64,000 nt of DNA, taken from positions 515 through 64,514 of the forward strand of contig JAFTKH010000017.1 of NCBI GenBank assembly GCA_017453365.1. The letters are read 5' to 3'. A program made the position numbers and the translations under genes. Origin of the DNA: Clostridia bacterium. Its GTDB lineage: Bacteria > Bacillota > Clostridia > Oscillospirales > CAG-272. The notes under the pieces were generated by a model. That model was given only the letters and a program-made list of their open reading frames with translations. It searched no databases and was not told where the DNA came from. Positions 7,692-56,965 of the stretch are shown piece by piece; the first letter of the stretch is position 1, and every line of letters begins with the position of its first letter.

Positions 7692-7720
7692 TTGCATTTT
7701 AAATTTAACTGTGGTATAAT
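7692..7720 (+). promoter_or_regulatory. Sigma-A promoter of the hydrogenase operon
   Basis: TTGCAT-17bp-TATAAT with extended -10 TG. Confidence 0.7.
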
Positions 7721-7792
7721 TGCTTAGTAATGTAAGTACTTTTGATTTTGCTCATCAAAGCTACGGCATTAAAAATACAGGAGGATTTAAAA

Positions 7793-8287: not shown

Positions 8288-8320
8288 GACAAAAATTCTT
8301 CTTTTAAGGAAGTCGGTTTT

Positions 8321-8665: not shown

Positions 8666-8674
8666 GGGCACGGT

Positions 8675-9109: not shown

Positions 9110-10377
9110 ACTACGTATACGAGCATTCCGTGACTCTCGACGAGAGCAAATGTACGGGGTGTACTGCGTGTCTTAAGCACTGTCCGACCGAGGCGATACG
9201 CATTCGCGACGGCCACGCAAAGATAAATCCCGAACGATGCATCGACTGTGGAGAATGCATAAGAGTTTGCCCTCACAAGGCTAAACGCGCTCTTTCGAGC
9301 AAGCTTTCCTCCATGGAGAAATTCAAGTGGAAAATAGCGTTACCCGCTCCCACTCTCTACGGTCAGTTCGACAACCTTGATGACGTTGACTACGTTCTCG
9401 ACGGGCTGATAAAGCTCGGCTTCGACGAGGTATACGAGGTATCGAAGGCAGCGGAGCTTGTCTCCGCGTACACACGGCAGTATCTGAAGCTCGAGGGTGT
9501 CAAAAAACCCGCTATCAGCTCGGCCTGCCCCGTTGTTACACGTCTTATAGCTCTTCGTTTTCCCTCGCTCGCAGAACACATTATACATATGCTCCCACCT
9601 ATGGAGGTAGCGGCGAAGCTTGCGCGCACGCGTGCGCTCGAGGCTCATCCGGAGCTTTCGGCTTCGGATATAGGCGTATGCTTCATATCCCCCTGCCCTG
9701 CAAAGGCGAGCTACGTAAAGAACGGCTTCGCGACGTACAGGAGCGAGGTTGACGAGGTGGTGTCTATCAAGGACGTCTATTTTCAGCTCATCGGCATAAT
9801 GAGGAAGGATGACAAGATTGCCTCCCTCTCCGAGTCCGGAAGAATAGGCATAGGCTGGGCACGCTCGGGCGGTGAGGCAACCGCTATATTCAACGAGGAT
9901 TATCTTGCAGCTGACGGTATCGACAACGTTATACACGTACTCGACCAGGTAGAGAACGGCAATATTCCGCATCTTGAGTTTATTGAGCTCAACGCTTGCA
10001 CGGGCGGCTGTGTCGGGGGAGTTCTCACGATACAGAATCCCTTTATTGCAAAGGCAAGGCTTCAAGCTCTGCGTCGGTATATGCCGGTTTCAAAAAACGT
10101 ACTTTCAAAAGAAGAGCTAACATACATTCCGGACTATTATCTCTTCGATGACCTTCCGGAATACAATCCGATATCAAGACTGTCCGACAACATAGCGAAA
10201 TCTATGCGAATGATGGCGGACATACAAAATCTAAAAGCTGAACTGCCGGGTATAGACTGCGGCTCTTGCGGAGCGCCTAATTGCCGCGCCTTCGCCGAGG
10301 ACGTAGTCAAATCTCTGGCTTGCCCCGAGGATTGTCCAATCAAGACACTGTGGGAAATAAAGGAAGGAGATAAGTGA
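9106..10377 (+). CDS. Group D-like putative sensory [FeFe]-hydrogenase with 2x[4Fe-4S] and a C-terminal FeS domain
   Basis: Two CxxCxxCxxxCP motifs; ISSACP, SPCPAK, ELNACTGGCVGG; C-terminal LPGIDCGSCGAPNC. Confidence 0.8.
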   Translation: MNYVYEHSVTLDESKCTGCTACLKHCPTEAIRIRDGHAKINPERCIDCGECIRVCPHKAKRALSSKLSSMEKFKWKIALPAPTLYGQFDNLDDVDYVLDGLIKLGFDEVYEVSKAAELVSAYTRQYLKLEGVKKPAISSACPVVTRLIALRFPSLAEHIIHMLPPMEVAAKLARTRALEAHPELSASDIGVCFISPCPAKASYVKNGFATYRSEVDEVVSIKDVYFQLIGIMRKDDKIASLSESGRIGIGWARSGGEATAIFNEDYLAADGIDNVIHVLDQVENGNIPHLEFIELNACTGGCVGGVLTIQNPFIAKARLQALRRYMPVSKNVLSKEELTYIPDYYLFDDLPEYNPISRLSDNIAKSMRMMADIQNLKAELPGIDCGSCGAPNCRAFAEDVVKSLACPEDCPIKTLWEIKEGDK

Positions 10378-10706
10378 TGACGGTACGCGAGCTTGCATCT
10401 CACCCCGACTTTTCTCCTATCGCGATGCCAAATCCCGACCGCGAGGTAAAGGGCGCTTACATAGGCGACCTTTTAAGCTGGGTTATGGGACGGGCCAAGG
10501 CGGACACACTCTGGCTTACCATCATGTCGAACGTGAATGTCCTCGCTGTAGCATCGCTTGCCGACGTTTCTGCGGTCATACTGACCGAGGGTGTTACTCC
10601 GGAGAGTGACATCATAACAGCGGCTTCTGAAAAGGGTATCAACCTTATTTCCACCTCTCTTCCCTCCTACGGTGCAGCAAGGGTGTTGGTGGCGCTTGGA
10701 TTATGA
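10374..10706 (+). CDS. DRTGG domain protein
   Basis: GDLLSWVM, WLTIMSNVN.LAVA motifs. Confidence 0.75.
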   Translation: MMTVRELASHPDFSPIAMPNPDREVKGAYIGDLLSWVMGRAKADTLWLTIMSNVNVLAVASLADVSAVILTEGVTPESDIITAASEKGINLISTSLPSYGAARVLVALGL

Positions 10707-11434
10707 GAGAGTATAAATACGACCTTCACATACATTCCGCGCTTTCCCCCTGTGGGGACAACGACAACACTCCCGGCAATATTGCGGGTATGGCTCATAT
10801 ATCGGAGCTCGACATCGTAGCTCTTACCGACCATAACACCTGCAAAAACTGTCCTGCCTTTTTCGAGGCGGCAGAGAGCTTTGGCATCATACCTATAGCG
10901 GGTATGGAGCTGACTACTAGCGAAGATATACACGTGGTATGCCTTTTTGAGGAGCTCTCCTATGCTCTTGATTTTGAGCGTGAGCTCTCACGCTTCCGTG
11001 TGCTTATAAAAAACCGAACGGATATTTTCGGCGAGCAGCTGATATTCGATAGTGAGGATAACGTCGTAGGATATGAAGAGCACCTGCTCACAAATGCTAC
11101 CACGCTGTCTGTAGAGGACGTGCCCAAGCTTGTTTCTCGCTTCGGCGGTGTATGCTATCCCGCACATATTGATAAAGATGCGAACGGCATTATTGCCGTG
11201 CTGGGTACTCTGCCAGAAACACCGATATTCACTGCGGTTGAGCTACACGACCTAAAGAGGCTAGACGAGTATAACGAAAAATACTCTCTACGCGGAAAAT
11301 TCGTACTAACGGGCTCCGACGCTCACTATCTCGAGAACGTCGGCGACTGCTTTGGCACGGTGATGCTGGAGGCTGACAAGTCAGACCCATCCTCTGTGCG
11401 GCGCGAATTTCTTCGCAGGATTGGTGGCTTATGA
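10703..11434 (+). CDS. PHP-domain phosphoesterase
   Basis: DLHIHS, LTDHN, GMELTT.EDIH, PAHID, SDAH. Confidence 0.85.
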   Translation: MREYKYDLHIHSALSPCGDNDNTPGNIAGMAHISELDIVALTDHNTCKNCPAFFEAAESFGIIPIAGMELTTSEDIHVVCLFEELSYALDFERELSRFRVLIKNRTDIFGEQLIFDSEDNVVGYEEHLLTNATTLSVEDVPKLVSRFGGVCYPAHIDKDANGIIAVLGTLPETPIFTAVELHDLKRLDEYNEKYSLRGKFVLTGSDAHYLENVGDCFGTVMLEADKSDPSSVRREFLRRIGGL

Positions 11435-35688: not shown

Positions 35689-35738
35689 ATTCTACACCGT
35701 CCTATTTTTTATTATTTTAGCACAGCGGAGATGTTTTT

Positions 35739-38700
35739 TCAAGTACCTTTATAGTTTTTTTCACCTTTTCTCCTTTTTTCGTGCACAGTCGCGACCTTAT
35801 TTGCCTCACCGCCCGTCAGTGCTATCATTTTCACCGCAGAGAGGCTAAAGGCGTTCGCATATAGCTTAAGAGGCTTATCTATCGCTCCGCGCGCGAGCAC
35901 CTTAAGGTATCCTGCTTCCTCGGGTACGAGGCCGCGAGCCTTCAAGACGTTTATATCTATAACGTCATCTGCCGAGAAGCTTTCGGACAGTGTGTCTACG
36001 TTTATTATCGCACGACGTCTTCCCTGCGTATATATTTTAGTTCCCTCACGTCTTATGAGCGTTTTCGCAATACCGTCGCTGATAAGGCCGTCGGCACGCG
36101 TTACGTCGACTCCGCCTGCGGGAATTTCTGTAGGACTCGGAAGCGCGGCATTTGTTACCGGTGCTGCAAGACACCTTTCCTTGACTGCGAGAAGCAGACC
36201 GCGAATATCCTCGCGCCTTTTCGCGGCAAATACCAACAAAAGCATTAATGCCACCGCGAGCAAAAAGCAAAGAAACAGGGCGCGGCTCACGGCGGGGCTC
36301 GGGCGCGGAACGTAGTTTATATTTCCGGGGATAACGGTGAGGCGATAATTTGCATTGTCCGAGGTCGCATACAGTTTTCCGTCGAGGACGCAGTAGGACA
36401 CGTTAAGCTCTTCTCCCTCTGCTATGCTACCCTCTACGACTGCATAACCGTTTCCCCTCGGCTCCTCAAAAAGATAAACGTCCTCGTCAGCGAGCATTAC
36501 CGTAAGCTCGGACGGGAGTATAACGAACTCGAGAACCGTTTCCCCCGAAAGCTCGTAGTTGTTTGGGTCGACAGGTGCGAGCTCGACGTAATAGCTTCCC
36601 GCATCACGAAAGCCCGTCGTATTTACGACGCGGTATAATGGAGAGGACGGCGTAGGCAGCTGGAGCTCTCCGTTATAGACCAAGCCGCCTATGAGAGTCG
36701 GAGTTATCTTCTGCTTTTCAATGATGAGGGTACAAGGGGAAAGGGTCGGCGGCTCATAATTACGCTCGTCATACGAAAAGGCGGGTATTACCGTATATTG
36801 GCCAGCGTTTGTCCCTGCGCCCGAGAGCGAGAGGAGGGCTACCCCCTCGGGCAGTCCCGAGAGCGTGGGCAGCTTCGCCGTACCGTCGTACACGGCTACA
36901 GTGTTGCTCCATACGGCTCCAGACATATCGTAGCTTATCTTCTCTACTGTCACCGAAGCGCCCGCTGCTACGCCGAGGCAGGTGAAATTAACCCCGCCGT
37001 CACCGACTAGAAGGCAATCCCCCTCCCGATATTGAACGGCAACCTGCCGTGTGTCTACCTCTCTGACAGAGCCGTCGTTATAGGCGAGCTTCGCAGAAAA
37101 GTCGTCGGGCCCTACCCTATCAAAGGCAGAAAAGACGCTTTTTTTCATAGTAATATCAAGTCTTACAGGAACTATATCTATAACGGAAAATGAAGCAGCC
37201 TCCGAGAAAAACGGCAAATAATTCGCCCCCTCGGCAACATAGGCGCGTACGTAGTAGAGTCCCGGGGCCGTTGGTGTCACCTCGACTGTAAGTGCAGAGT
37301 CTCGGTAAAAAACGAAGCTCGGCTCTCCGTATTCGGCCGTAGCCTCGGGAGAGGGTGGCGTGCCGACAAACACGTCGCCCACCGTCAATTCAGACGTCAG
37401 GGAGTTCATTTTTTTGTTTATTTTATAGGAAACGTCGCTGTTTATTACGTAATAATTTTTATTCACAGACACCGCACGAGCGGTATATTCACCGGCATCA
37501 ATAGCAGCTCCTATCACGTAGGTGGGATATTCACCTATGGCATAGGGCTGCTTCTCCATACCGTCATAGACAAAATCCGTACCGTACCAAACTACGGTAA
37601 AGCCACGCGGTATTACCGTTATCGGAACATAAAGCTTCGAGGGGGGATAGTAATTGGTGCTCTCTGTAGAAAACACCACCTCTACGACGGGAGCTCCGCC
37701 GACGTCGGTGACACCGTCACCATAGGTGAAGGTGAGAGGAATACCGTCAAGTCCCGTCGGCATACTTCCGTTAAGGGTCGGAAGATGAGGTGTGCCGTCG
37801 TAGACAAATTCACCGCCGGTAAAGGAAAAGCCCGAGGTGTCGTAGGGAGCACGCTCGATATACCAGGTGAATTCAAGGGGTGGTGGCTCGTTATAGTTCG
37901 CACTGTCGAAAGAGAGAACGCAGGAAAGCTTATACTCTCCGGCATCGCAGCCTCTGTTATCCGTATAACCGACAACCGTAACACCAAGCGGCAGCCCCTC
38001 AAGAGCAACTGTTTTCACCGTGCCGTCGTACACAAAGCTGTCCGAGGAGAGACGAAGCCCCGAGAGGTCAAGGTCTGCTTTCAAAATGTTGTATTCCGTT
38101 GTGTAATTTCGTAAACTATAATTTGCATTATCAGTTGCCGCGACAGCGATGTAGCCGTCCTTCGCCATGATTGCGCCACCCGTCACGGTGAGCGAGACGG
38201 AAGCACCGAAAACGTCGGTAAATTTAGCACGGGGGCACATTACCGTGCCGTCATAGACGAACACCGTCCTATCCCAAACGACTGTTGCGGGCGCTGGATT
38301 TATTATCAGTGCCGAGTAGCTCACGGCAGGCGACTCGTAATCGAGCGAGTCGGTCGTAAAGCGAATCTCAACAACATACTCTCCGGCATCCGTTCCGCCG
38401 CCCGCAACGAAGGCGCGAAGCGGAATGCCGTCAAGCCCTACGGGCAGCTCCTTGTCAAAGGGATAGGTTTTATACGTACCGTCGTATACTGTCTCGACAC
38501 TCTCGAGGGTGAAGGTAATATCATATTCCCGCTTCACCACCGTGACGGGCACAGCTACCCTCACGCCTCTGTACTCGGCTATCACCGCCGTGTCTCCAAA
38601 GCGCAGACAGTTATCGGTCTGATAGAATACGGACACGCTTTCGGCTCCCAAGGTAATTTTTTGTCCGCTCTCATAGGTCACGAGGAAGGAAAGGCCGTCA

Positions 38701-40562
38701 CGCTTAAAATAATCAAAGGCGCGGTATTCCAGAACGTTCGGCTGTGTTTCGACCGAAAGAGCTACAGGAATGTCCTCACGTATTTCGAGGAGAAAGGGCT
38801 CCGTAGAAAGACCAGTATAGTTTTCGCATTCCGCGACCTCAGCCACTACGTAATACACGCCGACTTTATCGGGGGCGCTGTCCAGGTATTCCTCGCTTCC
38901 CTGCTCCCAAAACCTGTAAGCTACACTGCCGAAAAGAGCGTTACCGAAGAGCTTCAGTGTCTCACCGCTGTAGACCCACTCTGCATAAGGAACAGTCAGC
39001 CATGCGTTTTCCGCTCGGAGCACGGAGAAGCCTACGTAGACGGTATCTCCGCCTGCTCCCTGCCACGCGTAGTTCTCAGGGTCGGTAAGTGTTACGGGGA
39101 TAAGGTATTCTCCCGCATTTGTGTAGGTATCATACGAGGCGGTATAAAGCGCGCTCTCGTCAATATCGGGTATAAGCTCCGAGCCAGTATAAACGGTGCT
39201 TAAGTTCTCGGGCGGTGTTAACGTCATCTTCGAGACCGTTACAGTTATATAGGGGGTTACAACGCTTACACTGTCGCGCCCGACGGTAAAGGTTATTCTG
39301 CACCTGTATTTTCCGCTATCACTTACGCTTCGGTAGGTGAGGGCAGACGTAAAGCTCAAGGTCTCACCGCTCTCTCCCTCCCACGCGAAGGAATAAAATC
39401 CCTCGCCATCTAGGGGGTGCGAGAGCTCGGAGAAGGTGACGGTATGCTCTCTTCCGTCGTAGACGGTATCCGCGCTCAAAAGAGAGAAGGTCGGGGCGGC
39501 AAGTGTATACGAGGCGTAGAGCGTCAGGTCCGCGGTTGGAGCTTCGGCAAAATTATACTCCTCGGAGAGTGTTCCGTCTGTGCACCATACACCGGCGGTA
39601 TAGCCCTCACGCTCGGGTATAGGAAATGCGGTAGGGGTCATTCCCGAAAGAAGCTCCTCCGTATATACCGTAACACCGCCTGATATATAGGTCACATTAT
39701 AAGGAAGGTATACCGCCAGATATCCGTCGCCGCCGTTCTCAAAGAACGTGAGTCCGCGTGGAGCGCCGTTGCTATCGTAGACGGTGATATTATCGGCGCG
39801 TCCCCCGTCTATGCCCCAAACGACGGGATATAGGCCGCCCTTTTCAAATTCCCTTTGCAGCTTCACCGAGAGCGTTCCGCCGAAGGGTACGTCAGAGCTG
39901 ACGTAAAGCTCTCCCGAGGAGATGATATCGTATACTGCCGAGTCAAAGCTCACCGATCCGCCTACGGTGAGCGTACCGAAGGTTTCAACGGGGACACCCG
40001 CAGTGTTATCAACGTGTCCGCCGAGCAGCTCCGTGCTTCCTCTCTCAAGATATATGGCAGGAGATGAGGAGAGTGTGCTAACACGTCCGCCCGTCATAGA
40101 AAAAAACGACGAGGACACACCGGCCAGCCTGACCGCCGTTCCGTCCGAATGGCTGACAAGGCCGGAGACCATATACACCCTTCCGTCCCAGACGTCGAGC
40201 ACGCCGTCACCCGAAAGAGCGACGGTAAGGCCGTCGAGTGTCAAAACGGCGCCCCCCTTCACAGTTACCCCCTCCGTCGACGAAAGGCTTCCCGACAGGG
40301 TAAGCTCGCGCGTGAGTGTCAAGGGAGCGGAAAGACTCACGGAGTCAAATCTAACGTGCGAGCCGGCAGGTATAAGGTTAAAAAGCTCATCTATACTCGC
40401 AGAGAGCACAGGCTCGCTACCATCGGGTACTGAAAGCGTATACGTGCCCGCATCGCCCGTGAGAATATATTCCTCTCCTTCCTCGGCGCGCACCGATAGG
40501 GACGTGCCGAAAAATAGTAATAGTGCGAAAAGAGGGATTAGCAAAACGTACAGCTTTTTCAT
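35739..40562 (-). CDS. Large single-pass surface protein (InlB B-repeat, MBG/Ig-like repeats) with a cytoplasmic C-terminal ribosomal protein uL15-like domain
   Basis: Signal peptide ending VRA, repeated VYDG/DAGEY modules, TM ALFLCFLLAVALMLLLVF-AAKRR, then AIINVDTL...LKVLARG...ANAFSLSA...GG. Confidence 0.75.
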   Translation of the reverse strand: MKKLYVLLIPLFALLLFFGTSLSVRAEEGEEYILTGDAGTYTLSVPDGSEPVLSASIDELFNLIPAGSHVRFDSVSLSAPLTLTRELTLSGSLSSTEGVTVKGGAVLTLDGLTVALSGDGVLDVWDGRVYMVSGLVSHSDGTAVRLAGVSSSFFSMTGGRVSTLSSSPAIYLERGSTELLGGHVDNTAGVPVETFGTLTVGGSVSFDSAVYDIISSGELYVSSDVPFGGTLSVKLQREFEKGGLYPVVWGIDGGRADNITVYDSNGAPRGLTFFENGGDGYLAVYLPYNVTYISGGVTVYTEELLSGMTPTAFPIPEREGYTAGVWCTDGTLSEEYNFAEAPTADLTLYASYTLAAPTFSLLSADTVYDGREHTVTFSELSHPLDGEGFYSFAWEGESGETLSFTSALTYRSVSDSGKYRCRITFTVGRDSVSVVTPYITVTVSKMTLTPPENLSTVYTGSELIPDIDESALYTASYDTYTNAGEYLIPVTLTDPENYAWQGAGGDTVYVGFSVLRAENAWLTVPYAEWVYSGETLKLFGNALFGSVAYRFWEQGSEEYLDSAPDKVGVYYVVAEVAECENYTGLSTEPFLLEIREDIPVALSVETQPNVLEYRAFDYFKRDGLSFLVTYESGQKITLGAESVSVFYQTDNCLRFGDTAVIAEYRGVRVAVPVTVVKREYDITFTLESVETVYDGTYKTYPFDKELPVGLDGIPLRAFVAGGGTDAGEYVVEIRFTTDSLDYESPAVSYSALIINPAPATVVWDRTVFVYDGTVMCPRAKFTDVFGASVSLTVTGGAIMAKDGYIAVAATDNANYSLRNYTTEYNILKADLDLSGLRLSSDSFVYDGTVKTVALEGLPLGVTVVGYTDNRGCDAGEYKLSCVLSFDSANYNEPPPLEFTWYIERAPYDTSGFSFTGGEFVYDGTPHLPTLNGSMPTGLDGIPLTFTYGDGVTDVGGAPVVEVVFSTESTNYYPPSKLYVPITVIPRGFTVVWYGTDFVYDGMEKQPYAIGEYPTYVIGAAIDAGEYTARAVSVNKNYYVINSDVSYKINKKMNSLTSELTVGDVFVGTPPSPEATAEYGEPSFVFYRDSALTVEVTPTAPGLYYVRAYVAEGANYLPFFSEAASFSVIDIVPVRLDITMKKSVFSAFDRVGPDDFSAKLAYNDGSVREVDTRQVAVQYREGDCLLVGDGGVNFTCLGVAAGASVTVEKISYDMSGAVWSNTVAVYDGTAKLPTLSGLPEGVALLSLSGAGTNAGQYTVIPAFSYDERNYEPPTLSPCTLIIEKQKITPTLIGGLVYNGELQLPTPSSPLYRVVNTTGFRDAGSYYVELAPVDPNNYELSGETVLEFVILPSELTVMLADEDVYLFEEPRGNGYAVVEGSIAEGEELNVSYCVLDGKLYATSDNANYRLTVIPGNINYVPRPSPAVSRALFLCFLLAVALMLLLVFAAKRREDIRGLLLAVKERCLAAPVTNAALPSPTEIPAGGVDVTRADGLISDGIAKTLIRREGTKIYTQGRRRAIINVDTLSESFSADDVIDINVLKARGLVPEEAGYLKVLARGAIDKPLKLYANAFSLSAVKMIALTGGEANKVATVHEKRRKGEKNYKGT

Positions 40563-40772
40563 AAAAATCTCCCACAAAGAAAATTACATTTAGGGAGATT
40601 ATAGCACCCGCGCCCGTCCTAGGACAAGTCGTATATACCGTTAAAATATCCAAAAGTTACGACTGTTTTTCCCCTCTTCGCCGAGCGTTGCTTAACTTTT
40701 TTCAAAAAATAACGGCAAGCGACAAAAAAAGAGATGACGGAAAGACTCAAATTTCGAATCTTTCCGCCTAAA

Positions 40773-46973: not shown

Positions 46974-49900
46974 TTACTCTGCTGCGACTGTTGCGGGGTG
47001 CGGGTTTATCTGCGAGAAGTAGCTCTCGAGGTTCACCACATCGTCCGCGGTAAGTGCCGAGCGGAATACCATAAGCTCATCCAAATACATCAGAGGAGCG
47101 TGGTTGGTATCTGCTGTACCGTACTCGCCTATTGTGAAGGGCTGCGCATCAGCAGAAAGATCGGCAGGAATTTTCGTACTACTATTGTAGTAAGTGATAT
47201 CAGTGCTGTAAACCTCAACGAAGTTAAAATATACTACAAGCTTACTATTCGTTCTATCCATGCTTACAGCAACATGTGTCCATTCATTCACAGCTATATT
47301 ACCCGAAAGCGTACATATAGCCTGCATTCCGGCGGTACCGTCACCGATGGTGACTGCAAGATTATTGTACTCAAGATCCAAAAGAATGTTCATACCGAGA
47401 TTTTCACGGGAAAGGCCTGCCGCTGTCGATACTATCGGGAGCTTATATCTGCTTGCACCGCCCATGGTTAAATTGGTAGGATTAATCCAGAAGGATACGG
47501 TGAAATCACCGTTTTCGAGCTTCAAATCTTCAACCGTCTGGTAGTTGCTTCCCGAGTAGTATGCAGAGGTGCCCGCTACACCGTTGTAGCCGCTACCATA
47601 GGTAGTTGTTCCGGTTTCTGTGACAGTGGTATTTAGAGTTCCTTCCGTATTAAGGTTACCATCAAATCCTAAATAAAGCTCGGGGGCCTTATCCTCACCG
47701 AGGTAATCGGAGACAGGATTAATGTAGTAATCCTTAAGCTTTGCAACGTCTGCTTCAGTTACTGCCCTATTAAAGATCATAAGGTCATCCATATAAACCT
47801 TGGGAGTCTTCGTCAGGGGAGATGCATACTGTCCGACTGTGAACGGCATAGCATCCATATCAGCATCCTGCGGGAATGCAGCTCCGCCATAACAAGTTAT
47901 AACGTTAGTGGTATTTCCGTTTATATCAGATACCTTGACAAAGTCATAGTATACCTCAAGAGTATCTGAATCTCCGTCCTTATTAACACTTATCGTTATA
48001 TGCGTCCACCTATTCTCGTAGGTATCAGCAGGAAGGGAATACTGATACTGTGCACCGTCAGTTACATCATCACTTCCCATAGTAATTGCGAGGTAGTCTC
48101 TTTCATTATTGAGCAATACGTTCAGGCCTGCATCTTCACGTCCGTCACCGACGCTCGTCGACAAAAGTGCGAATATCCATCTATCAGAAGAGGTATTACC
48201 GTTTGTCAAATCTGTAGGATTCAACCAGAAGGAGAAGGAGAAGCTGCCTGTGCCGAGCTTCACATCCTCAAGGGTTGCGTAATTCGTGCCGCTGAAATAG
48301 ATAGAGCCGCTCTCGGTTCCGTCATAGCCGGAGCCGTAGGTTGAGGTGCCGGTAGCGGTGATGCCGCTGGGCTGGCTGCCCTCCTGGTGAAGGTCGCCGT
48401 TAAAGTCAAGGTATACCTCGGGCTGAGTATCGTTGTCGAATACGCTGATAGCGCCCTCGTCAACTATTGGAGTCTTATTATAATATTCAACAAGAGCATT
48501 CAAATCCTTATTCGTGAAGGCACCGTTCCAAACCATAAACTCGTCGACGGTAAGGCCTGCCTTTTCTGCGTCGTAGCCTGCATCCTGACCTATTACGAGA
48601 TACTCGTATACGGTAGTGAGGTCAACCACGGACATATCGGTCGAGCCTCTGTCGCTGGCTATCTCTACAGTCGTGAACTCACCGAAGTCGTAGCACATAC
48701 GAAGCTCGTTGTTGGCTCTGTCAACTACGAGGGTTACGTGCGTCCAGCCCTTCACAACCTCGGCGGGGTCAAGGTCGGTCTTAATTCTACAGCCTGCCTC
48801 ACCGTTTCCGATATTGAAGTAGGTGTAATACTGGATAGGACCGGTCAGGCGCTCTGCGACGAAGTTAAAGCCGTGACCCGTAGTTCCCCACTGTCCGTTC
48901 GAGAGTATTACGGACGAGCCGTGGTGTGCGGGAGTCTTCATCCAGAAGGTTACGGTAAAGCTATCAGTACCGGGTGCGAAGCCGTCGAGGGTCAGATATC
49001 CGCGGTCAAGGCTCGCCGCGCTACCGAAGTAGCCGTCGATATAGTTAACTATACCGCCCTCTGTTACTGTAGCGCCCTGCGTATCGGTCGCAGTACCGTC
49101 AAGGGGAAGGTAGTTGATAAGCTCCTTATCAACGTAGTCGGTTACGTAGCTGCCGCTACCAAGGGCGGGAGTATCAGTAGGTACTACGTCGCGGGGGTTA
49201 TCGGGGTCGTGGTATACGGGACGCTCCTCGGCACTAACACCGTCGAAGAGGTTCTCGGGAATGCAGCCCGTATAGGTCTCGGGAGCTGCGATACCAAGAG
49301 CATAGAGTGCGATAGCCGCGGTGTCGCGGTTATCAACACCGTCGATAGTTCCGCCGTTCTTAACAGTCTTACCTGCTACGGCGAAGAGAACGTACTGCTC
49401 GGCATCGGACTGACCGCCGTGGGTAGTGCCCGTTCCGCCGTGATCAGCGGTTACGATGAAGAGGGTCTCATCAAGAATTCCGAGAGCCTCATAAGCTGCG
49501 TAAATCTCTCCGATATCTGCATCAGAGTCTGCTATTGCTGTAGCGTACTGTTCAACGTCTGCGCTGTAGCCGTAGCCGTGACCAGCAGCATCGGGAGCGT
49601 GAAGGTGTACGAAGAGGGCCTTCGGTGCGCTATCCTTAAGATACGTACCGGTTATGTAGTTCATAAGGTCGGTATCGTTGTTATTCGTACAGATCTCGTC
49701 AATACCAACACCGTCCTCAACACAGCCGTTAATGCCGCACCAGGAGTAGAGAGCTCCGACTCTCTCGTCAGGATAAGCTTCCTTCACAAGCTTTAAGAAG
49801 GACGGATACTTTGAGTTAGTGTAGGATGCACCGTCTGCCTCAACTGCCTCGTTCTCATAAATTCCGTGATGCTCGGGAAGAACACCGTGAAGGTGAGATG

Positions 49901-50858
49901 CCCAAGAGGGGCCGGAGGAGGTGGGAGCGTTTATAAACATCTGTTCGGTCTGTGCACCGTTAGCAAAAATCGCGTCAATGTTCGGGGTCGATGTCTGCGC
50001 TACGCCCTCGCTGTCGCGCCATCTAAACGTACCTGCGCCGTCGACGCCTATTACTACTACGTAGTTATACATACCGAACGAGGAGCTCTCGGCAGAGAGG
50101 GTCGCGGTTACAGTCGTATTCTCGTCTGTTACAGTGTACTCATACGTGTTACCAACCGCTACAGTCTGACCGTTCGCGTTCGACCAGATTACGTAGGGGA
50201 GCTCTTCGGTAGGAGTTGCGGTAAGGATTACCTTAGTACCGACCTCATAGAGTCCCGAGTTCATTCCGTCGGGAAGCTCGCCTCCCACAACGGTGACCTG
50301 TCTGTAGGTATCGGTCGCAAGCGACTCGGTGTTCTCACCGAAGTACTGCTGCGCTGCTGCGCCGTAGGCGAGCATCTCAAGAAGGACGTTCTTCAGCTCA
50401 TCGGTAGCGCTGCTTTCCTTCGTTATTCCGAGCATATTATAGGCATACTGAAGGATGCTGTACTTGAACGGCTCGCTGTACGTGCCGTCGTAGTAAGCCT
50501 TTACGTACACGTTTTTCGTCATTTCAGCTGCCGCAAGGCCGTCAAATCTGAACGTTGCTTCCTGCGTTTCTGTGTTTTGCTCACTCGACTTAATTGAGTA
50601 ATGCTCGTTACCCTTCACACAGTCGTCAACGTGTATTCCGTCGCCGACCCAAATAAGGAGCTCAATATCTTCGGGTGCGGATATATTCTCATATCCAACC
50701 AAGAAGAGCATATTTACCGAGTCCTCAAGCGAAAGGGCACCGTGCTTTACCTCAAGGGCAGGCTCACTCTCGCTCGCGGAGACACCTATTACAACTGCCG
50801 TCGCGGAGAAAATGAGCGTAAGCACGAGTAGTAGAGTTAGTGCTAATCTCTTTTTCAT
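46974..50858 (-). CDS. Secreted multidomain protein: uncharacterised N-terminal module, alkaline-phosphatase-superfamily domain, three LamG domains
   Basis: Signal peptide MKKRLALTLLL...VSA; IGVDGAG, PTSSGPSW, DAAGH, TADHGG; three FxxxFW..P/WTH+.+/DELM+F repeats. Confidence 0.85.
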   Translation of the reverse strand: MKKRLALTLLLVLTLIFSATAVVIGVSASESEPALEVKHGALSLEDSVNMLFLVGYENISAPEDIELLIWVGDGIHVDDCVKGNEHYSIKSSEQNTETQEATFRFDGLAAAEMTKNVYVKAYYDGTYSEPFKYSILQYAYNMLGITKESSATDELKNVLLEMLAYGAAAQQYFGENTESLATDTYRQVTVVGGELPDGMNSGLYEVGTKVILTATPTEELPYVIWSNANGQTVAVGNTYEYTVTDENTTVTATLSAESSSFGMYNYVVVIGVDGAGTFRWRDSEGVAQTSTPNIDAIFANGAQTEQMFINAPTSSGPSWASHLHGVLPEHHGIYENEAVEADGASYTNSKYPSFLKLVKEAYPDERVGALYSWCGINGCVEDGVGIDEICTNNNDTDLMNYITGTYLKDSAPKALFVHLHAPDAAGHGYGYSADVEQYATAIADSDADIGEIYAAYEALGILDETLFIVTADHGGTGTTHGGQSDAEQYVLFAVAGKTVKNGGTIDGVDNRDTAAIALYALGIAAPETYTGCIPENLFDGVSAEERPVYHDPDNPRDVVPTDTPALGSGSYVTDYVDKELINYLPLDGTATDTQGATVTEGGIVNYIDGYFGSAASLDRGYLTLDGFAPGTDSFTVTFWMKTPAHHGSSVILSNGQWGTTGHGFNFVAERLTGPIQYYTYFNIGNGEAGCRIKTDLDPAEVVKGWTHVTLVVDRANNELRMCYDFGEFTTVEIASDRGSTDMSVVDLTTVYEYLVIGQDAGYDAEKAGLTVDEFMVWNGAFTNKDLNALVEYYNKTPIVDEGAISVFDNDTQPEVYLDFNGDLHQEGSQPSGITATGTSTYGSGYDGTESGSIYFSGTNYATLEDVKLGTGSFSFSFWLNPTDLTNGNTSSDRWIFALLSTSVGDGREDAGLNVLLNNERDYLAITMGSDDVTDGAQYQYSLPADTYENRWTHITISVNKDGDSDTLEVYYDFVKVSDINGNTTNVITCYGGAAFPQDADMDAMPFTVGQYASPLTKTPKVYMDDLMIFNRAVTEADVAKLKDYYINPVSDYLGEDKAPELYLGFDGNLNTEGTLNTTVTETGTTTYGSGYNGVAGTSAYYSGSNYQTVEDLKLENGDFTVSFWINPTNLTMGGASRYKLPIVSTAAGLSRENLGMNILLDLEYNNLAVTIGDGTAGMQAICTLSGNIAVNEWTHVAVSMDRTNSKLVVYFNFVEVYSTDITYYNSSTKIPADLSADAQPFTIGEYGTADTNHAPLMYLDELMVFRSALTADDVVNLESYFSQINPHPATVAAE

Positions 50859-51402: not shown

Positions 51403-54400
51403 TTAAACATCCCACGGCAGATCCCATTTTCCGTCACTGCCGCTATCGGGCGTAGGCTCCTCCACGTCGGGATTATCGGTGCCGTCATCGGGCTGCTCGA
51501 TATCGGGGTAGCTCACCGAGTAGTCATACGCGTAGGCGCAGTAGGTATAGAGCGCATCAAGCAGAGGACGGCAGGTCGAGGTGTCCTCCGCTACGTATGA
51601 GGAGAGTGTGAAGACGGCTGTTTCAACCGTATCACTACCCTCACTCTGTGCGGAAACCGTAACCTCCTTATTGAAGAGATCCTTCGCCTTTATATATCCT
51701 ATCGCTATGATAGTCTCGCCCTCTTTACCCTCTACGAGGCCGCCCGTTACGTTATAGGTTATTCCCTCTACCGTTACACGTCCCGTATATCCTTCCGCTA
51801 TATGTAACAGTATCTTTACGTCAGAGGATATCGAGAGGTTAACGGCTCTTACAGCAGAGGTGAGGTTATCTATCGAGCCAGACGCCGCCCTTGTCACCAC
51901 ACCATCGGTGGAAAAGTCTGTCAGCTCTGTAGGAGCGGTGGCGTTTGCATAGGAGTACGCTTCCTTCACGTAGGCTATTGCCGCCTTACCGAGGAGCTTC
52001 GACTCGTCGGAATACTCACTCGCCATAAGCTTCTCTACGTACGCGAGAACAGAGTAATCAAGAGTAAGTGTTTGAGTGATGCCGTCCGAGAGGACTGTTA
52101 CCTCGAAGGTTACGGCATCCGCCGCCTTATGTGCCGGGAACTCGACTGTGTATTTATCCTTCCCCTCCCATTCGACGGGCGAGAGCTCGATGCCGTCTGC
52201 GGTTATACCGAGGATTACGCTTCTGTCAGCGAAGAAATTAAGATTGAAATTCGCGGAAAGCGTGAGATTTACCTGAAGGGCGCTTCCGACGGACAATTTT
52301 TTAACGTAGCAGTAATATACAACCCCATCATACATTCCGTCAATATTAAGCGTGCCGCCCTCGTACATAGCATAGTTCGTAAGGTCGGTTATAGGTGTAT
52401 CTCCCGAGTACCAAGTGACGTTCGCCGAGTGGTACTGTGCCGCGGTCGCGCCGTGCTCAACAACGTTATACACACCGGACGTGAAGCGCGTATCGACGTC
52501 GATATTGATATATCTCACGTAGGTCGAGGCAGGGGCTGCGCCCGAATCGATAACCTCTATAAGAGAGTCGAAGTTATCGAGGACGGAGCCGCCCGTGACG
52601 GTTACGGAGTAATTGGTATCGGCTACGTTATTATAAATTTGAGCAATGAGGATGCTCTTAAGAGCTGTGCCGTCGAGGATAAGCTTCTTTTCCTCACTTC
52701 CCGAAGCGGCTAAGAAGCCGTCCTGTGCGGATATGTAACCGCTGTTCTTACTCATTACGGTACAGTTAGTCAGGGATACCGTCCTAGCACTTCCGTTATT
52801 GAAGAGGTGCTTATTCACCGTTATATCAATGTTTTCAAAATAGACGTTGCTACCCGGGCGAGCCAAAATCGCCGAATAGGTGTTATCCGTCATAACGAGC
52901 GTTCCCCTGCCCGAAGAGCTTATGAAGCGAACATCACGCTCGGGAAGCCAAGAGGCTCCGAGGTTACCCGCGTAGGTGCTGTTATCACCCTTTCCTATAG
53001 TTATCTGACCGCCTACGGTCGTTGCGGTATAGCCGTTAAGGTCGAAGGTAACGTCGTAGTCGTAGAAGGTATTAAGCGTTCCTACGGTAATATCCGAATA
53101 GAGCTTTACTGTCGAGCCGTTCTCGGTGACGAGGACGTAGTCACTGCCCGAGTTGCCCTCGAGATAAGGGGTCTCCCAAGCGGTAAGTATTACGCTCTCG
53201 CCGCCTGCTCTCCACTCTATTATCCTATAGGAAGAAATATCGCCGATAAGAGAATAAGAATCTACGCCTTCCTTCTTATAGTAAAAGTCGGTGTATTTAA
53301 CAGATGCATCTGCCGAAACCACAGCGATATTGCAGCTGCTATCCTCGCCATTTGCATTTATAGCAGTGCCTGTGGACGTTGCCGAATCTGCATTTAGAAC
53401 GTAGGTGAAATCGGGAATCGCACCCTCGGTGAAGGTCACACCCTCCTCGAAGAAGAGCTCAACCGGCACGCTATCTGCCAGGGTATTCGAACGGGCGAGG
53501 TAGTAGTTACCGTTTCCGCTGACGGTACAATCCTTATCAAAATACACGGTACCGCCGTCACCGTCACCTCTTACCCAGAAGAGGGGTGCTGTACGGTTGT
53601 CGGCAACGGTAATATCGGTGCCTATAAATTCGAGTCTGCCCGCGGGAGATTTAACCCAGCATGCGGCGGCAGAGTTAAGCGTTATCTTACAGTCGGTGTA
53701 GCTGATAAGCGCTGCGCCGCCGTCGTAGATCATCTGGTACCAGCCGCTCGCGGTTACGTTGATTGCTACACTGTCGAAGATAAGCTCGGTATCGGGGCGA
53801 GGAGATATCTGACCGCCCGTTATGTTGAAATATCCGTTTTTGACGGTAAGGGAGGCTTCGGGATACGAAGCGGACACGCCGCCTATCGATAACCCTGACG
53901 CAGAATTAATGACGTGCTGATTAAGGTTGATAACCAGCTTCTGCGTATTACCTACTATTACCTCCGTCGCAATATTAAGGTCTGACCACAGGTGCACGTA
54001 GCCGGGAATGACACCCTCGGTGTAATAAGTCGTGCCGTCGCCCGCGGTCGCGATAATCGCGGTATCGAGGTCGGTCGAGGTCGAGAAATAGATGGGGTTC
54101 TCCCCTGCCATAAAGTCCGCTTCGCTCATCCACACGCCGTAGGTTATTCCGTCGTAGGCGGAGTCGTCGGGAGACCAGACTATGCTCTCCATACGCATTA
54201 TTGTCGAGAGGCCGTCCTCGCCGAGCTTAAGTCCCCATTCGCCGTCAGCGATATAGGTACCGGCCTGCACCTTTCCGGCGAATTCACTCCCAGAGAACAG
54301 GTCACTCGCTGCGGTGGTTACCGTATTATCGTAAATGCAGGTGCCCGAGAGAGTCATAATAGTATCAGCGGTCGGAAGAGTGTAGCTTATCCCGTCGTCC

Positions 54401-56667
54401 TCGGGGACTATGACCGCAACCTCGAGGGGGCCGCCCTCGGTATTCGCATACGCGGTTACCGTCGAGACCCCAATAGCGGTTTCGCTAGTTATGTCTGCAC
54501 CTGTTTTATTGTAATAGGTATAGGTGTATGGCATATTGTAGTCGGGCTTCGCCGCCTCGGAAATTCTGCATCCGAGCTCGAAATAAAGCCCCTGCGTCTT
54601 ATAGAAGCCGCGATAGGTATTGTTTACAGCCGCGCCGTCGGTCAGGGAGACCCAATTATTGCTCGCTCTGTCAACCGACGAATCTCTATCGAAGAGTATC
54701 TTCACATTAGTATATCCGTAATAGCTGGTTGAGATATTAAACAGAGGTTTACCGGGAATACCCTCACAGACGAGGTCGGAGTTCTTGAATATAAGATAGC
54801 TCTGATAGGGGGACGCTATGTTATGGCCTATAGCGAAGCTTGCATCTCCCTTAATCTTAACTATACTGTCCTTAAACATAAGGAGCTCACAGCCGTTATC
54901 CTGGATGACATTCGAGGTCCAGCTGCACGTGTAGTCCCTCGCGTCGTATATGACGTTCTCAAAGATAACGGTTGTATCCTGACGTAAATATACGGGGTCT
55001 GCCGTATGGTAAACCGTTCCGTTCTTTACGGTAAAGTACGCCTTCGCATGCGCACCGGAGCTTGAAATGTTCCATGAACTTGAGCAGCTCCAGGTGTAAC
55101 CCGCGAGGTTAACAGTAAGTCTTTTATCACCTACGTCAACGCGCCCTGCCGTGCTGTTGCTCACATCCGAATAGAAATGAACGTATCCGACCGTAGCCGC
55201 GCCCGAGCCTATATTGCTCGCATCTGTGTATGCGGCGTAGTGCTCGGTGCCCTCTGCCGCCGCGTCAGCTGTATACCATGCTATGGGCTCTGCACCTGCG
55301 AGGAATGCGTCCTCGTCGGTCCAGGTTGCAAAGGTTACGTTATAGCCTGTATCGCCTGCGAGGTCTGCCGCGGTTTTCGCGTTCGGTGCAGACGTCGTCT
55401 GGTCGTACGAGCCGGGGATGAAATCGGGTCTTTCCGCGTCGGTGGTAACATCTGTTATTTCTATCTCACCGCTATTAGGTACAACGTCGATATACGCGTA
55501 GCTCACAGACCCGTCGTTTACACACTTCGCGGTCTTGGTTTCACCGTTTAAGGTATAGCTTACGCGCACCCAATCTGCGGGAAGCTCAAGCTTTACTGTG
55601 AGGGGATAATCGAAGACGTCGGCAGGAAGAGAAAGTCCGTCCGAGGTCTCGGACGCCATTTCTACGGAAACGTAATATTTGCCGCCAAGAGAATAGGCAC
55701 TGACGGTGGAGTTCTGGCGCTCGCGGACATATTTTGTCGCGGTGGAGAAATTAGCTACCCAGAGGTTACCTGAATTTTGGTATTTCTGCATAGCGGAGAA
55801 AATATATCTCGCCTGCGTTTCGTTCATATCGGTTGTATTTATCTCCTCGCCATCCTTCGTTACACCGTGGCATACGGAGATGAACCAACCGTTGTTATTT
55901 ATACACTGCTCCAGATATTTAACGATGTTTTCGGGGCTACCGCTCTCTGCGTAAACATCTGAAAAAGGCTGCATTCTCGTCATATATGGCTCAAACCATC
56001 CGCCGTAACCGACACCGGAGTCAGGCGAGAGCGACTGCATCTTCCCCGAATAAGCCGAGTTCGTAGTGACGGAGGCATCTCCGCCCGAGGTAGCATAGAA
56101 ATAGTCGTTAACTATTTCGTGCTGTGTACCGCCGTAGTTCGAATACGGAACAGCATAGGTCAAGCAATCGTATTCCGGAAACCACTGCTCCAGATATAGC
56201 TTCGAGTCACCTATTTCTGAATGTCTTTCCTCATCGGTCGAAAGCTCGGTATGGATATTCTTATGCCACATCGAATGGCTCTGAGGCTCGAGGTAGCCTT
56301 CTGCAAAGACTGCTCTCCATTCATCAATACTCTTTCTGCTCGTGCCGACAAGACTGTTATCTACGTCTATGTACGTCAACATAATCGAGGCTTCGAGTCC
56401 GTACTCTGCCAGAAGCTGATTCAGAAACAGAGCCGTATCGTATATACCGTCATCGAAGGTCATGGTAGCTATTGCATCAGCACCGCCCTTCGCAAGTGTA
56501 AGTTCTGCATTAGCGTCGATTTTTACCGTATCAGCACTTTCACTGTCCGCCGAAAGCGGAAAGCTGAACGATGGCAAAAGCATTGTTAAAAGCATAATCA
56601 GTGAAAACCCTCCCAAAAAAATCCTACGCATGACAGACGACTTTTTGGAAAGCTTAAATTCTCTCAT
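51403..56667 (-). CDS. Very large secreted protein: CE4/NodB polysaccharide deacetylase, three beta-helix-like repeats, two C-terminal unknown modules, acidic tail ending WDLPWDV
   Basis: AGGAGG RBS before ATG 56667; signal peptide ending PLSA; TFDDG, QSHSMWH; repeats GYVH(F/L)(Y/W)SD...L.+NL. Confidence 0.8.
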   Translation of the reverse strand: MREFKLSKKSSVMRRIFLGGFSLIMLLTMLLPSFSFPLSADSESADTVKIDANAELTLAKGGADAIATMTFDDGIYDTALFLNQLLAEYGLEASIMLTYIDVDNSLVGTSRKSIDEWRAVFAEGYLEPQSHSMWHKNIHTELSTDEERHSEIGDSKLYLEQWFPEYDCLTYAVPYSNYGGTQHEIVNDYFYATSGGDASVTTNSAYSGKMQSLSPDSGVGYGGWFEPYMTRMQPFSDVYAESGSPENIVKYLEQCINNNGWFISVCHGVTKDGEEINTTDMNETQARYIFSAMQKYQNSGNLWVANFSTATKYVRERQNSTVSAYSLGGKYYVSVEMASETSDGLSLPADVFDYPLTVKLELPADWVRVSYTLNGETKTAKCVNDGSVSYAYIDVVPNSGEIEITDVTTDAERPDFIPGSYDQTTSAPNAKTAADLAGDTGYNVTFATWTDEDAFLAGAEPIAWYTADAAAEGTEHYAAYTDASNIGSGAATVGYVHFYSDVSNSTAGRVDVGDKRLTVNLAGYTWSCSSSWNISSSGAHAKAYFTVKNGTVYHTADPVYLRQDTTVIFENVIYDARDYTCSWTSNVIQDNGCELLMFKDSIVKIKGDASFAIGHNIASPYQSYLIFKNSDLVCEGIPGKPLFNISTSYYGYTNVKILFDRDSSVDRASNNWVSLTDGAAVNNTYRGFYKTQGLYFELGCRISEAAKPDYNMPYTYTYYNKTGADITSETAIGVSTVTAYANTEGGPLEVAVIVPEDDGISYTLPTADTIMTLSGTCIYDNTVTTAASDLFSGSEFAGKVQAGTYIADGEWGLKLGEDGLSTIMRMESIVWSPDDSAYDGITYGVWMSEADFMAGENPIYFSTSTDLDTAIIATAGDGTTYYTEGVIPGYVHLWSDLNIATEVIVGNTQKLVINLNQHVINSASGLSIGGVSASYPEASLTVKNGYFNITGGQISPRPDTELIFDSVAINVTASGWYQMIYDGGAALISYTDCKITLNSAAACWVKSPAGRLEFIGTDITVADNRTAPLFWVRGDGDGGTVYFDKDCTVSGNGNYYLARSNTLADSVPVELFFEEGVTFTEGAIPDFTYVLNADSATSTGTAINANGEDSSCNIAVVSADASVKYTDFYYKKEGVDSYSLIGDISSYRIIEWRAGGESVILTAWETPYLEGNSGSDYVLVTENGSTVKLYSDITVGTLNTFYDYDVTFDLNGYTATTVGGQITIGKGDNSTYAGNLGASWLPERDVRFISSSGRGTLVMTDNTYSAILARPGSNVYFENIDITVNKHLFNNGSARTVSLTNCTVMSKNSGYISAQDGFLAASGSEEKKLILDGTALKSILIAQIYNNVADTNYSVTVTGGSVLDNFDSLIEVIDSGAAPASTYVRYINIDVDTRFTSGVYNVVEHGATAAQYHSANVTWYSGDTPITDLTNYAMYEGGTLNIDGMYDGVVYYCYVKKLSVGSALQVNLTLSANFNLNFFADRSVILGITADGIELSPVEWEGKDKYTVEFPAHKAADAVTFEVTVLSDGITQTLTLDYSVLAYVEKLMASEYSDESKLLGKAAIAYVKEAYSYANATAPTELTDFSTDGVVTRAASGSIDNLTSAVRAVNLSISSDVKILLHIAEGYTGRVTVEGITYNVTGGLVEGKEGETIIAIGYIKAKDLFNKEVTVSAQSEGSDTVETAVFTLSSYVAEDTSTCRPLLDALYTYCAYAYDYSVSYPDIEQPDDGTDNPDVEEPTPDSGSDGKWDLPWDV

Positions 56668-56965
56668 TGCATTCTTCCTCCTTGACAAAATCTTTGCAAC
56701 TTAAAGATATCATAAAATTTTTACACAATCAATGGCTATTTGTGGTTCATTTGGCATTTTGTTGGTTTTTTAATCAAAAAAACAACAAAAGGTAATATTT
56801 TCTCTCTTTTCAACAAAACTTTTTTCAAATTTGTGTTTTTTAATAGAAAAAACAAGTCAATTCGGTGTCATTTCTGTGTTTTTCCCTGTTTTTTGTGTTT
56901 TTTTGTATTGACTTTTTGTATAAAATGTGTTTAAATATTGATAGACCGCAAAGGAGAAAAGGTGT

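Follow-up and report, generated by a model that had tools for sequence, protein, structure and literature searches.

Large predicted surface proteins of uncultured gut Clostridia end in a diverged paralogue of the uL15 globular domain

Why should a gene for a giant, adhesin-like surface protein end in a piece of a ribosomal protein? The question was raised by an earlier note on a 64,000-nt stretch of a contig from an uncultured Clostridia bacterium (JAFTKH010000017.1, positions 515 to 64,514; hereafter the window). The gene occupies 35739..40562 on the minus strand, to which all feature coordinates below refer, and encodes a predicted type-I surface protein of ~1,607 aa that is anchored by a C-terminal transmembrane (TM) helix. 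It lies in a single stop-free frame of 1,612 codons (35739-40577) that itself reaches a TTG at 40577, with ATG 40562 (residue 6 in the ORF numbering used throughout) as the likely start and the stop codon at 35739-35741. The tail sequence quoted in the note was found exactly at the C terminus of this frame. Neighboring genes are unrelated housekeeping genes that encode an ECF S-component, a pseudouridine synthase, an AlaX-like editing protein, a thioredoxin and an acyl-ACP thioesterase; none of the flanking genes in the window is ribosomal, in agreement with the proposed location outside the spc operon, and no conserved neighboring gene was seen there.

Hydropathy and sequence features support the surface-protein architecture. 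A signal peptide (residues 6-31; 40485..40562) with an A-x-A-like site at its end precedes an extracellular repeat region of ~1,400 aa (residues 32-1432; 36282..40484), in which nine VYDG-type (MBG-like) motifs recur at intervals of about 75-90 aa. The description of these repeats as Ig/MBG-like holds in part: the VYDG motifs agree with it and one repeat, the Listeria-Bacteroides repeat (Pfam Flg_new; residues 293-355; 39513..39701), passes its Pfam cut-off (39.9 bits versus 27), while MBG_3 remains subthreshold (17.3 bits versus 25). Ectodomains of homologues contain MBG_3, Big_3, Flg_new and Ig_2. Apart from an N-terminal hydrophobic segment, hydropathy analysis detected a single TM helix (core residues 1433-1452; 36222..36281), with a peak of 3.09 across residues 1427-1454. 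It is followed by the basic stop-transfer sequence KRRED (residues 1453-1457; 36207..36221), which, by the positive-inside rule, places the tail of 158 aa on the cytoplasmic side. Signal peptide, single TM helix and basic stop-transfer were thus recovered as originally described, and the gene is intact, encoding a predicted surface protein with a signal peptide, MBG/Flg_new-type repeats and a C-terminal TM anchor. The Flg_new repeat and MBG-like VYDG motifs are shared with other Gram-positive repeat-containing surface proteins, but those carry LPXTG/sortase signals or cell-wall-binding repeats, whereas the protein studied here is anchored by a TM helix and a folded cytoplasmic domain. It contains no LPXTG motif, and a search of 31 genomes from the genus, including 15 high-quality ones, detected no sortase (PF04203).

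The tail begins with a weakly conserved linker (residues 1458-1491; 36105..36206) that shows the lowest identity of all internal regions to 11 homologues (9-71%). Next is a family-specific predomain (residues 1492-1523; 36009..36104) comprising two short helices with the pattern A-D-x-L-I-S-D-x-x-A-K-x-L-I, which lead into the opening strand of a beta-hairpin and a basic turn (AF2 H15-21, H24-30 and E32-40, pLDDT above 90). Its residues A18, D19, D24 and A27 are nearly invariant in the tail alignment, and it stands where true uL15 has its N-terminal extension. The uL15/L27A-type globular domain itself spans residues 1524-1592 (35802..36008), and the protein closes with a short Lys/Arg-rich extension (residues 1593-1612; 35742..35801; model pLDDT 70-76) of the kind typical of what we term type-A tails, where it carries a net charge of +1 to +4 in 10 of 11 cases.

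The assignment of this domain to uL15 was borne out by profile, structure and motif comparisons. Pfam PF00828 (Ribosomal_L27A) matched residues 1524-1592 over profile positions 1-71 of 72 (E 7.5e-12), scoring 45.9 bits against a gathering cut-off of 21.5, and 52 bits in the genome scan. A profile built from 21 tails retrieved from the PDB only uL15 and eL18 chains (55 distinct sequences), with Enterococcus faecalis L15 as the best match (chain residues 72-144, E 5.8e-15). The AF2 model of the tail (pLDDT 91.5, pTM 0.81) likewise found uL15 or eL18 chains in all 50 PDB matches listed by Foldseek, 24 of them at E <= 1e-3, and the best-fitting ones superposed with an rmsd of 1.4-3 Å across 72-80 residues. 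In an Atlas search, PF00828 was present in 30 of 30 matches. Tails retain the K-V-L-x-x-G, F-S-x-x-A and G-G motifs of uL15, and 15 columns are invariant among the 21 aligned. The archaeal and eukaryotic eL18 (L18e) shares the globular fold and appears among the weaker PDB and Foldseek matches (NF003079 matches the tail at E 7e-4), but its likeness is much weaker than that of bacterial uL15, and it is a ribosomal component rather than a membrane-protein tail. We conclude that the tail carries at its end a diverged paralogue of the uL15 globular C-terminal domain. The bacterial full-length model TIGR01071 (rplO_bact) matched only at positions 70-142 of 144 (31.7 bits versus a cut-off of 77.95); because the match starts at position 70, the N-terminal rRNA-binding extension is absent, as the note had stated.

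Bacterial uL15 is a small protein (~145 aa) encoded by rplO, which adjoins secY in the spc operon, and its Gly/Arg-rich N-terminal extension provides much of its rRNA contact. The fusion tail resembles it in the ~72-aa C-terminal globular domain, its fold and its motifs, but lacks this extension, sits at the end of a 1,600-aa membrane protein and is encoded outside any ribosomal operon. The earlier suggestion of an interaction with the translocon was drawn from only the rplO-secY gene adjacency, which is uninformative on binding. Whether the fusion could be a membrane-tethered working ribosomal protein that replaces uL15 in the 50S subunit was a legitimate concern, as canonical rplO is absent from its own assembly, a metagenome bin of 52% completeness. 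However, secY is missing too, so the spc region is unassembled and rplO with it. The separate rplO that the note had suggested confirming was sought in the same genus and found, at a normal ~150 aa, in 19 of 24 genomes; eight of these 19 also hold one or two fusions, which are therefore not the sole uL15-type genes there. In the tree, a 100/97 branch parts all tail types from canonical uL15, including that of the same bacteria. The unassembled spc region, the normal rplO of sister genomes, the score below the rplO equivalog cut-off and the missing extension leave replacement with practically no probability: the fusion protein neither is nor replaces the ribosomal protein.

An incompletely recovered source genome also raises the suspicion of an artefact, in which chimeric assembly or a decaying pseudogene had joined an adhesin gene to an rplO fragment, and a few short database proteins that join the tail to HTH, ABC or HAD domains do look chimeric. 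For the locus itself, such an origin is extremely improbable. The frame of 1,612 codons lacks an internal stop, and contigs from two samples bridge the TM-tail junction (35695-36843 and 35840-37340) with 0 differences, contradicting the misassembly that had been considered at this position. The same architecture recurs in hundreds of independent assemblies, and the tails form their own clade, distinct from rplO. The HTH_3, ABC_tran and HAD joins (P0290, P0304 and P0283) are probable chimeras or miscalls, as each occurs on one short contig with an abrupt join, one of them in mid-domain.

The tail defines a large family. Clustering at 50% identity yielded 1,531 representatives, and in all 150 of those listed the match lies within ~20 residues of the C terminus. 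A set of 252 homologues ranges from 886 to 2,821 aa, with PF00828 in 120 of 120 listed. A count across the clade, of the kind that the note had proposed, recovered the tail family from 33 genomes out of 251 in one Clostridia family and from 1 out of 375 in other families of the order; among the genomes searched, the tail family is nearly restricted to this one family of uncultured gut Clostridia. Members are already deposited under the NCBI name 'uL15 family ribosomal protein' and, in public records, as 'ribosomal protein L15' or 'L18E', and these extra PF00828 matches might distort the counting of marker genes by pipelines for genome quality and phylogenomics. A search of the openly searchable literature found no description of the fusion family. 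Judged by titles and the beginnings of abstracts, the papers listed for Ribosomal_L27A/PF00828 concerned marker-gene or annotation uses, and queries for uL15 with transmembrane or fusion returned herpesvirus UL15 only. The family is thus present in databases, and we found no published account of it. Searches for a mobile-element origin gave two weak tblastn matches of the tail to phages, one of them (37% identity) at E 1e-3; the other was a canonical rplO in an unverified phage record, where it lies within a bacterial spc operon, and was discarded. Plasmids gave no match and PHROGs no significant match.

Within the bacterial family, ectodomains of different kinds share one tail module. The contig studied here already carries a second example, a gene for a 2,409-aa protein whose ectodomain differs but whose tail module is the same. 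Two further types, C and D, also occur in the family and were obtained from the 385-595-aa frames of the family scan; another frame of that size class (L117) turned out to be a canonical rplO whose reading continues into its neighbors and not a fusion. Linkers in the tails comprise tens to hundreds of flexible residues. Tails of types B and D combine the uL15-like domain with a second, companion domain, which also occurs as four tandem copies on one cytoplasmic protein with DUF2357. Foldseek returned nothing for the companion at E <= 1e-3, and Atlas gave subthreshold leads only (DUF5655, score 0.86). The likeness of its model to YdhG/YjbR-type proteins (E 0.08-0.3, below significance) is a lead rather than a finding.

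Conservation within the protein peaks in the uL15-like domain, with 68-85% identity to 11 homologues compared to 34-65% for the ectodomain. Basic residues occupy two positions, the K of K-V-L and the K/R of D-K/T-K, in every canonical uL15 row and in all four tail types aligned. Net charge of the 73-aa domain was about neutral (-2 to +4), as in canonical domains, and was set aside as a test of RNA binding because it did not discriminate between the two. For the whole module, values were positive in 10 of 11 type-A tails and negative or neutral in 8 of 10 type-B modules, the latter arguing against generic polyanion binding as a common function. Where the last helix of canonical uL15 presents a charged face, tails of types A and B have the more hydrophobic sequence A-V-K-M-I; packing against the new helices, or a protein interface, may account for this change instead of RNA binding. 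A complex prediction with two tail copies scored 0.00, which is neutral on self-association.

What might such a tail do? The reading that we favor, at a probability of roughly 0.4, is that it is a cytoplasmic docking module for a conserved ligand, with the ribosome, rRNA or another RNA as the leading candidate. Docking is suggested by the strongest conservation within the protein, the placement of the domain after a linker that is variable and flexible, and the transfer between unrelated membrane proteins, while the uL15 ancestry of the domain points to the candidate ligands. The tail domain would bind its intracellular ligand and link the surface protein with the translation machinery, thereby fixing its position or clustering it; alternatively, docking would keep ribosomes at the membrane. 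The shared basic positions, the basic flanks and mostly net-positive modules of type-A tails, and the companion domain found in types B and D offer hints on the ligand. Counting against RNA or ribosome docking are the missing rRNA-contacting extension and the fact that the uL15 site in mature ribosomes is occupied by the real protein. A bolder version, to which we give a low probability, treats the uL15 piece as a domesticated handle that, across a whole family of gut Clostridia, would couple adhesins and other single-pass membrane proteins to ribosomes, their precursors or RNA, such that ribosomes would be held at the membrane beneath these giant proteins, or signals from extracellular binding would reach translation. 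The Escherichia coli proteins YqjD, ElaB and YgaM, which possess a DUF883-type N-terminal cytoplasmic region, a C-terminal tail anchor and no ectodomain, offer a parallel. According to a preprint (bioRxiv 10.1101/2024.08.16.608256), they are C-tail-anchored, ribosome-binding membrane proteins and provide a precedent for combining a membrane anchor with a ribosome-binding cytoplasmic part, binding being hypothesized for the fusion tail. There is no sequence relation, and a Pfam scan of the whole fusion protein detected no such domain; moreover, these proteins are small with an N-terminal cytoplasmic part, whereas the fusion protein has the reverse topology and a large ectodomain.

Several of the same observations could be accommodated if the domain had been repurposed, losing RNA binding and docking instead to a cytoskeletal, division or signaling protein, in which case it would serve localization or clustering of the surface protein or outside-in signaling. 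In types A and B, the last helix exposes a hydrophobic face in place of a charged one; this change, the added two-helix element, the acidic or neutral type-B modules, the loss of the rRNA-threading extension and the very high conservation are all compatible with a protein partner. We nevertheless regard this as somewhat unlikely, as no partner is known and the window offers no conserved neighbor gene, the fold is otherwise matched in the PDB by ribosomal chains only, and the two basic positions of canonical uL15 are kept in all tail types. A simpler role, that of a passive cytoplasmic stopper whose compact fold stabilizes the TM anchor of very large proteins in organisms without sortase, would fit the lack of sortase and LPXTG noted above and the finding that some family tails (for example, P0400) bear a different domain in place of uL15. 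Such a stopper needs only to fold, yet the domain is more conserved than the ectodomain and contains invariant surface-type lysines, and the long linkers put it far from the membrane; we consider this role rather improbable.

Only ribosomal chains matched the uL15/eL18 fold in our PDB searches, and here the fold, after its recruitment, has been conserved and shuffled as the cytoplasmic terminus of over 1,000 membrane-protein clusters in abundant, uncultured gut bacteria. If coupling to ribosomes, their precursors or RNA were true, it would represent a new kind of envelope-to-ribosome link derived from a ribosomal protein paralogue. If the domain binds something else, the family would clearly exemplify a ribosomal protein domain that has evolved a new function; if it still binds ribosomes or RNA, it would directly link cell-surface proteins to the translation machinery of these bacteria.

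The gene forms an open frame of 1612 codons on the minus strand (35739..40577), with a likely ATG start at 40562. ORF translation and hydropathy indicated a hydrophobic signal peptide (residues 6-31, ORF numbering), an ectodomain of about 1400 aa, a single, strongly hydrophobic transmembrane (TM) segment (core residues 1433-1452, nt 36222-36281) followed by KRRED, and a C-terminal tail of 158 aa that matches letter for letter the sequence quoted in the earlier note. As to the Ig/MBG-like repeats described there, nine VYDG-type motifs recur in the ectodomain at a spacing of about 75-90 aa, one Listeria-Bacteroides repeat exceeded the Pfam cut-off, and MBG_3 was matched below cut-off only. The ectodomain resembles those of MBG/Flg_new repeat surface proteins but comes without sortase anchoring; a motif search of the whole protein revealed no LPXTG motif. 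Sortase (PF04203) was found in none of 31 genomes of the genus, 15 of them at least 90% complete, and the C-terminal TM helix is, therefore, a plausible means of holding such proteins on the cell. Surface proteins of the genus must be held otherwise than by sortase. Two further large secreted proteins are encoded on the minus strand of the window, one of 1294 aa (46974-50858) that combines a type-I phosphodiesterase/sulfatase-like domain with three lectin-like domains of the Laminin_G_3 type, the other of 1761 aa (51403-56688) with a polysaccharide deacetylase domain; neither has a TM helix or a tail at its C-terminus.

The tail had been read as a uL15 domain without its N-terminal extension, and the identification as a uL15-derived domain is right. 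Pfam Ribosomal_L27A (PF00828) matched residues 1524-1592 over profile positions 1-71 of 72 (E 7.5e-12, 45.9 bits, cut-off 21.5), while the NCBIfam rplO equivalog aligned at positions 70-142 of 144 only (31.7 bits, far under the 77.95 cut-off). Judged from these alignments, the globular half of uL15 is present and the N-terminal extension absent. A profile of 21 aligned tails of the genus (alignment A1) matched 55 distinct PDB sequences, every one uL15 or eL18, with Enterococcus faecalis L15 as the best (5.8e-15; profile positions 52-125 against chain residues 72-144). An AlphaFold2 model from the same alignment (pLDDT 91.5, pTM 0.81) gave 24 Foldseek matches in the PDB at E <= 1e-3; all 50 matches listed were uL15 or eL18 ribosome chains, and the best-fitting showed rmsd values of 1.4-3 Å across 72-80 residues. 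PF00828 also appeared in 30/30 protein atlas feature hits. N-terminal to the uL15 domain, the model contains a confidently folded addition, here termed the pre-domain (residues 1492-1523), consisting of two short helices with a near-invariant A-D-x-L-I-S-D-x-x-A-K-x-L-I motif and a beta-hairpin leading into the first strand of the uL15 fold. The protein has type-I topology: on the cytoplasmic side, a variable linker ends in a folded and conserved domain derived from uL15.

An assembly artefact, raised earlier as a possible misassembly, can be practically dismissed as the origin of the fusion: contigs of two samples from one study bridge the ectodomain-TM-tail junction with zero differences (sample contig set X1 record 2, 35695-36843; X2 record 6, 35840-37340), X2 being the more independent evidence because X1 may be the source sample. 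As previously stated, the gene lies outside the spc operon; it is flanked by genes for an ECF S-component, an RluA-type pseudouridine synthase, an AlaX-like protein, a deaminase, thioredoxin and an acyl-ACP thioesterase. The genome, a bin of 38 contigs with 52% completeness, contains two PF00828 matches, both within giant frames. Canonical rplO was not found in this incomplete bin and neither was secY, so the assembly simply lacks the spc region. Among relatives, all counts being samples of incomplete bins, canonical rplO (about 150 aa, 67-79 bits) was present in 19 of 24 same-genus genomes and 16 of 16 from other families of the order, and extra PF00828 matches (41-56 bits, frames up to 2072 aa) occurred at 19 places in 13 of the former and in none of the latter. 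Eight same-genus genomes hold canonical rplO beside an extra match, making it extremely improbable that the tail is a true ribosomal protein. The domain is a PF00828 member; the protein itself is not an rplO equivalog because score, length, extension and gene context all fail. Among these relatives, extra matches reach three per genome. PF00828 is in use as a single-copy marker, and wherever it serves as such, these extra hits could be miscounted. Separately, a human faecal record labelled ‘UNVERIFIED: Bacteriophage sp.’ (MT835508.1) contains a bacterial spc-operon segment (4601-10810) with ORF translations resembling rplF, rplR, rpsE, rplO, secY and adk; either the whole record or this stretch appears to be bacterial.

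Querying a clustered protein collection with the tail returned 252 proteins of 886-2821 aa; PF00828 was present in 120/120 among the matches listed, mostly alongside Flg_new, MBG_3 or Big_3. A further 108 shorter proteins were majority fragments on 1-4-kb contigs. An exhaustive phmmer search over 1.84 billion representatives matched 1531 at E <= 1e-3, 923 at <= 1e-10 and 115 at <= 1e-30; among the best 150 of the 1531, 95 were at least 1000 aa long and the match ended within about 20 residues of the C-terminus in all 150. A search of one-genome-per-species contigs turned up 377 stretches coding for a relative. The best 80 of these came nearly all from metagenome-assembled genomes with largely animal/human gut or faecal record titles, labelled Clostridia, Eubacteriales, Oscillospiraceae or ‘uncultured Ruminococcus’. 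Phyletic spread is narrow: tail-type matches, defined as at least 84 bits with the pre-domain included, were found in 33 of 251 sampled genomes and 18 of 97 genera of the bacterial family, and in one of 375 genomes of the order outside it (69% complete, 3% contamination). Where these proteins are named at all, the names are ‘uL15 family ribosomal protein [Clostridia bacterium]’ (NCBI), ‘ribosomal protein L15/L18E’ (JGI), ‘ribosomal protein L15’ or ‘L18E’. The family is real, widespread and mislabelled in public records, and combines known parts in a new way. A literature search identified no published account of this architecture, and as far as our searches reach the family is undescribed.

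We distinguished four tail types, with labels A-D coined here. Type A, that of the present gene, comprises 11 of the 21 genus tails and has a short linker; its module (pre-domain plus uL15-like domain) is net positive in 10/11. The remaining ten, type B, have acidic linkers, in most cases a mid domain, and a module that is net negative or neutral in 8/10. Types C (L119, L120, L121) and D (L118) occur elsewhere in the bacterial family, at loci from genomes G162, G075, G227 and G145, and both carry the uL15-like domain but lack the pre-domain with its two helices. The type C proteins are 385-463 aa long and join a small beta-rich ectodomain to a TM helix and a Pro-rich linker; type D spans the membrane several times, and in it the mid domain precedes a divergent uL15-like domain. 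A second fusion gene, encoding 2409 aa, lies outside the window on the same contig (C1, about 100.7-107.9 kb; L003:2712-9941, minus strand; PF00828 48.2 bits). It contains a signal peptide, an ectodomain unlike that of the first, one TM helix (1919-1951), long acidic Glu-Pro-Val-Ala repeats, a mid domain of about 160 aa and the same module. The 73-aa domain was placed in a maximum-likelihood tree, where a branch with 100/97 support divides the eight canonical uL15 rows from every one of the 25 tail rows, and type A groups as a clade (100/99). The tail is a mobile module, and this unrooted tree of a short domain fits a single recruitment with subsequent spread among membrane proteins.

The mid domain of the 2409-aa protein (L003:3255-3770, minus strand; AF2 model pLDDT 89.1) had no Pfam match, weak Foldseek likeness to YdhG/DUF1801 and YjbR (E 0.08-0.3) and a DUF5655 lead in the Atlas (score 0.86). 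It constitutes a separate family, exemplified also by P0372, with PF00828 present in 78/120 homologues among the matches listed. In P0400 and others it is the only tail domain, and in P0312, a cytoplasmic protein with no signal peptide, four tandem copies are fused to DUF2357. Short database proteins joining the tail to HTH_3, ABC-ATPase or HAD domains (P0290, P0304, P0283) were rejected as real architectures; with one short contig apiece and abrupt joins, one mid-domain, they probably stem from chimeric assembly or faulty gene calling. Three others (P0274, P0309, P0131; 112-136 aa, contigs of 10-33 kb) start just before the A-D-x-L-I-S-D helix and are possible stand-alone modules, or could be the remainder of a giant gene whose call was cut by a frameshift further upstream.

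Against 11 full-length homologues, identity was 68-85% in the uL15 domain, 42-94% in the pre-domain, 34-65% in the ectodomain, 21-82% in the TM segment and 9-71% in the linker, placing the cytoplasmic domain under the tightest constraint. Because it outconserves the rest of the protein, is flexibly tethered and is exchanged among unrelated membrane proteins, we infer that it behaves like a docking module, which at the end of its tether would bind a conserved intracellular ligand.

The leading candidate for this ligand would be the ribosome, rRNA or another RNA, to which we assign a tentative probability of about 0.4. In its favor, PDB matches of the fold are ribosomal chains only, and all aligned rows, canonical or tail, have a basic residue at the K of K-V-L and at the K/R closing the next loop. 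Type A tails also retain a basic turn immediately ahead of strand one, and a Lys/Arg-rich stretch extends their C-terminus; the mid domain of types B and D points the same way through its tandem copies on the DUF2357 protein and the weak YdhG/YjbR-type likeness of its model. However, the 73-aa domain is about neutral, as are canonical ones, type B modules are largely acidic or neutral, and the uL15 site is already filled in the mature ribosome. The uL15 N-terminal extension, gone here, carries much of the rRNA contact. In types A and B, the last helix is more hydrophobic, a change that fits either a protein-binding surface or the packing of the added helices; binding of a non-ribosomal protein partner is a somewhat less probable alternative to ribosome or RNA docking. 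That the tail is a passive stopper seems unlikely. The nearest functional precedent for a membrane-anchored ribosome binder is YqjD/ElaB/YgaM of E. coli (bioRxiv 10.1101/2024.08.16.608256). Our protein, for which ribosome binding is a candidate role, is not related to that group by sequence and has the reverse topology.

In this family, a ribosomal protein fold has been domesticated into a conserved handle that surface proteins carry on their cytoplasmic side, with a predicted ligand that is directly testable.
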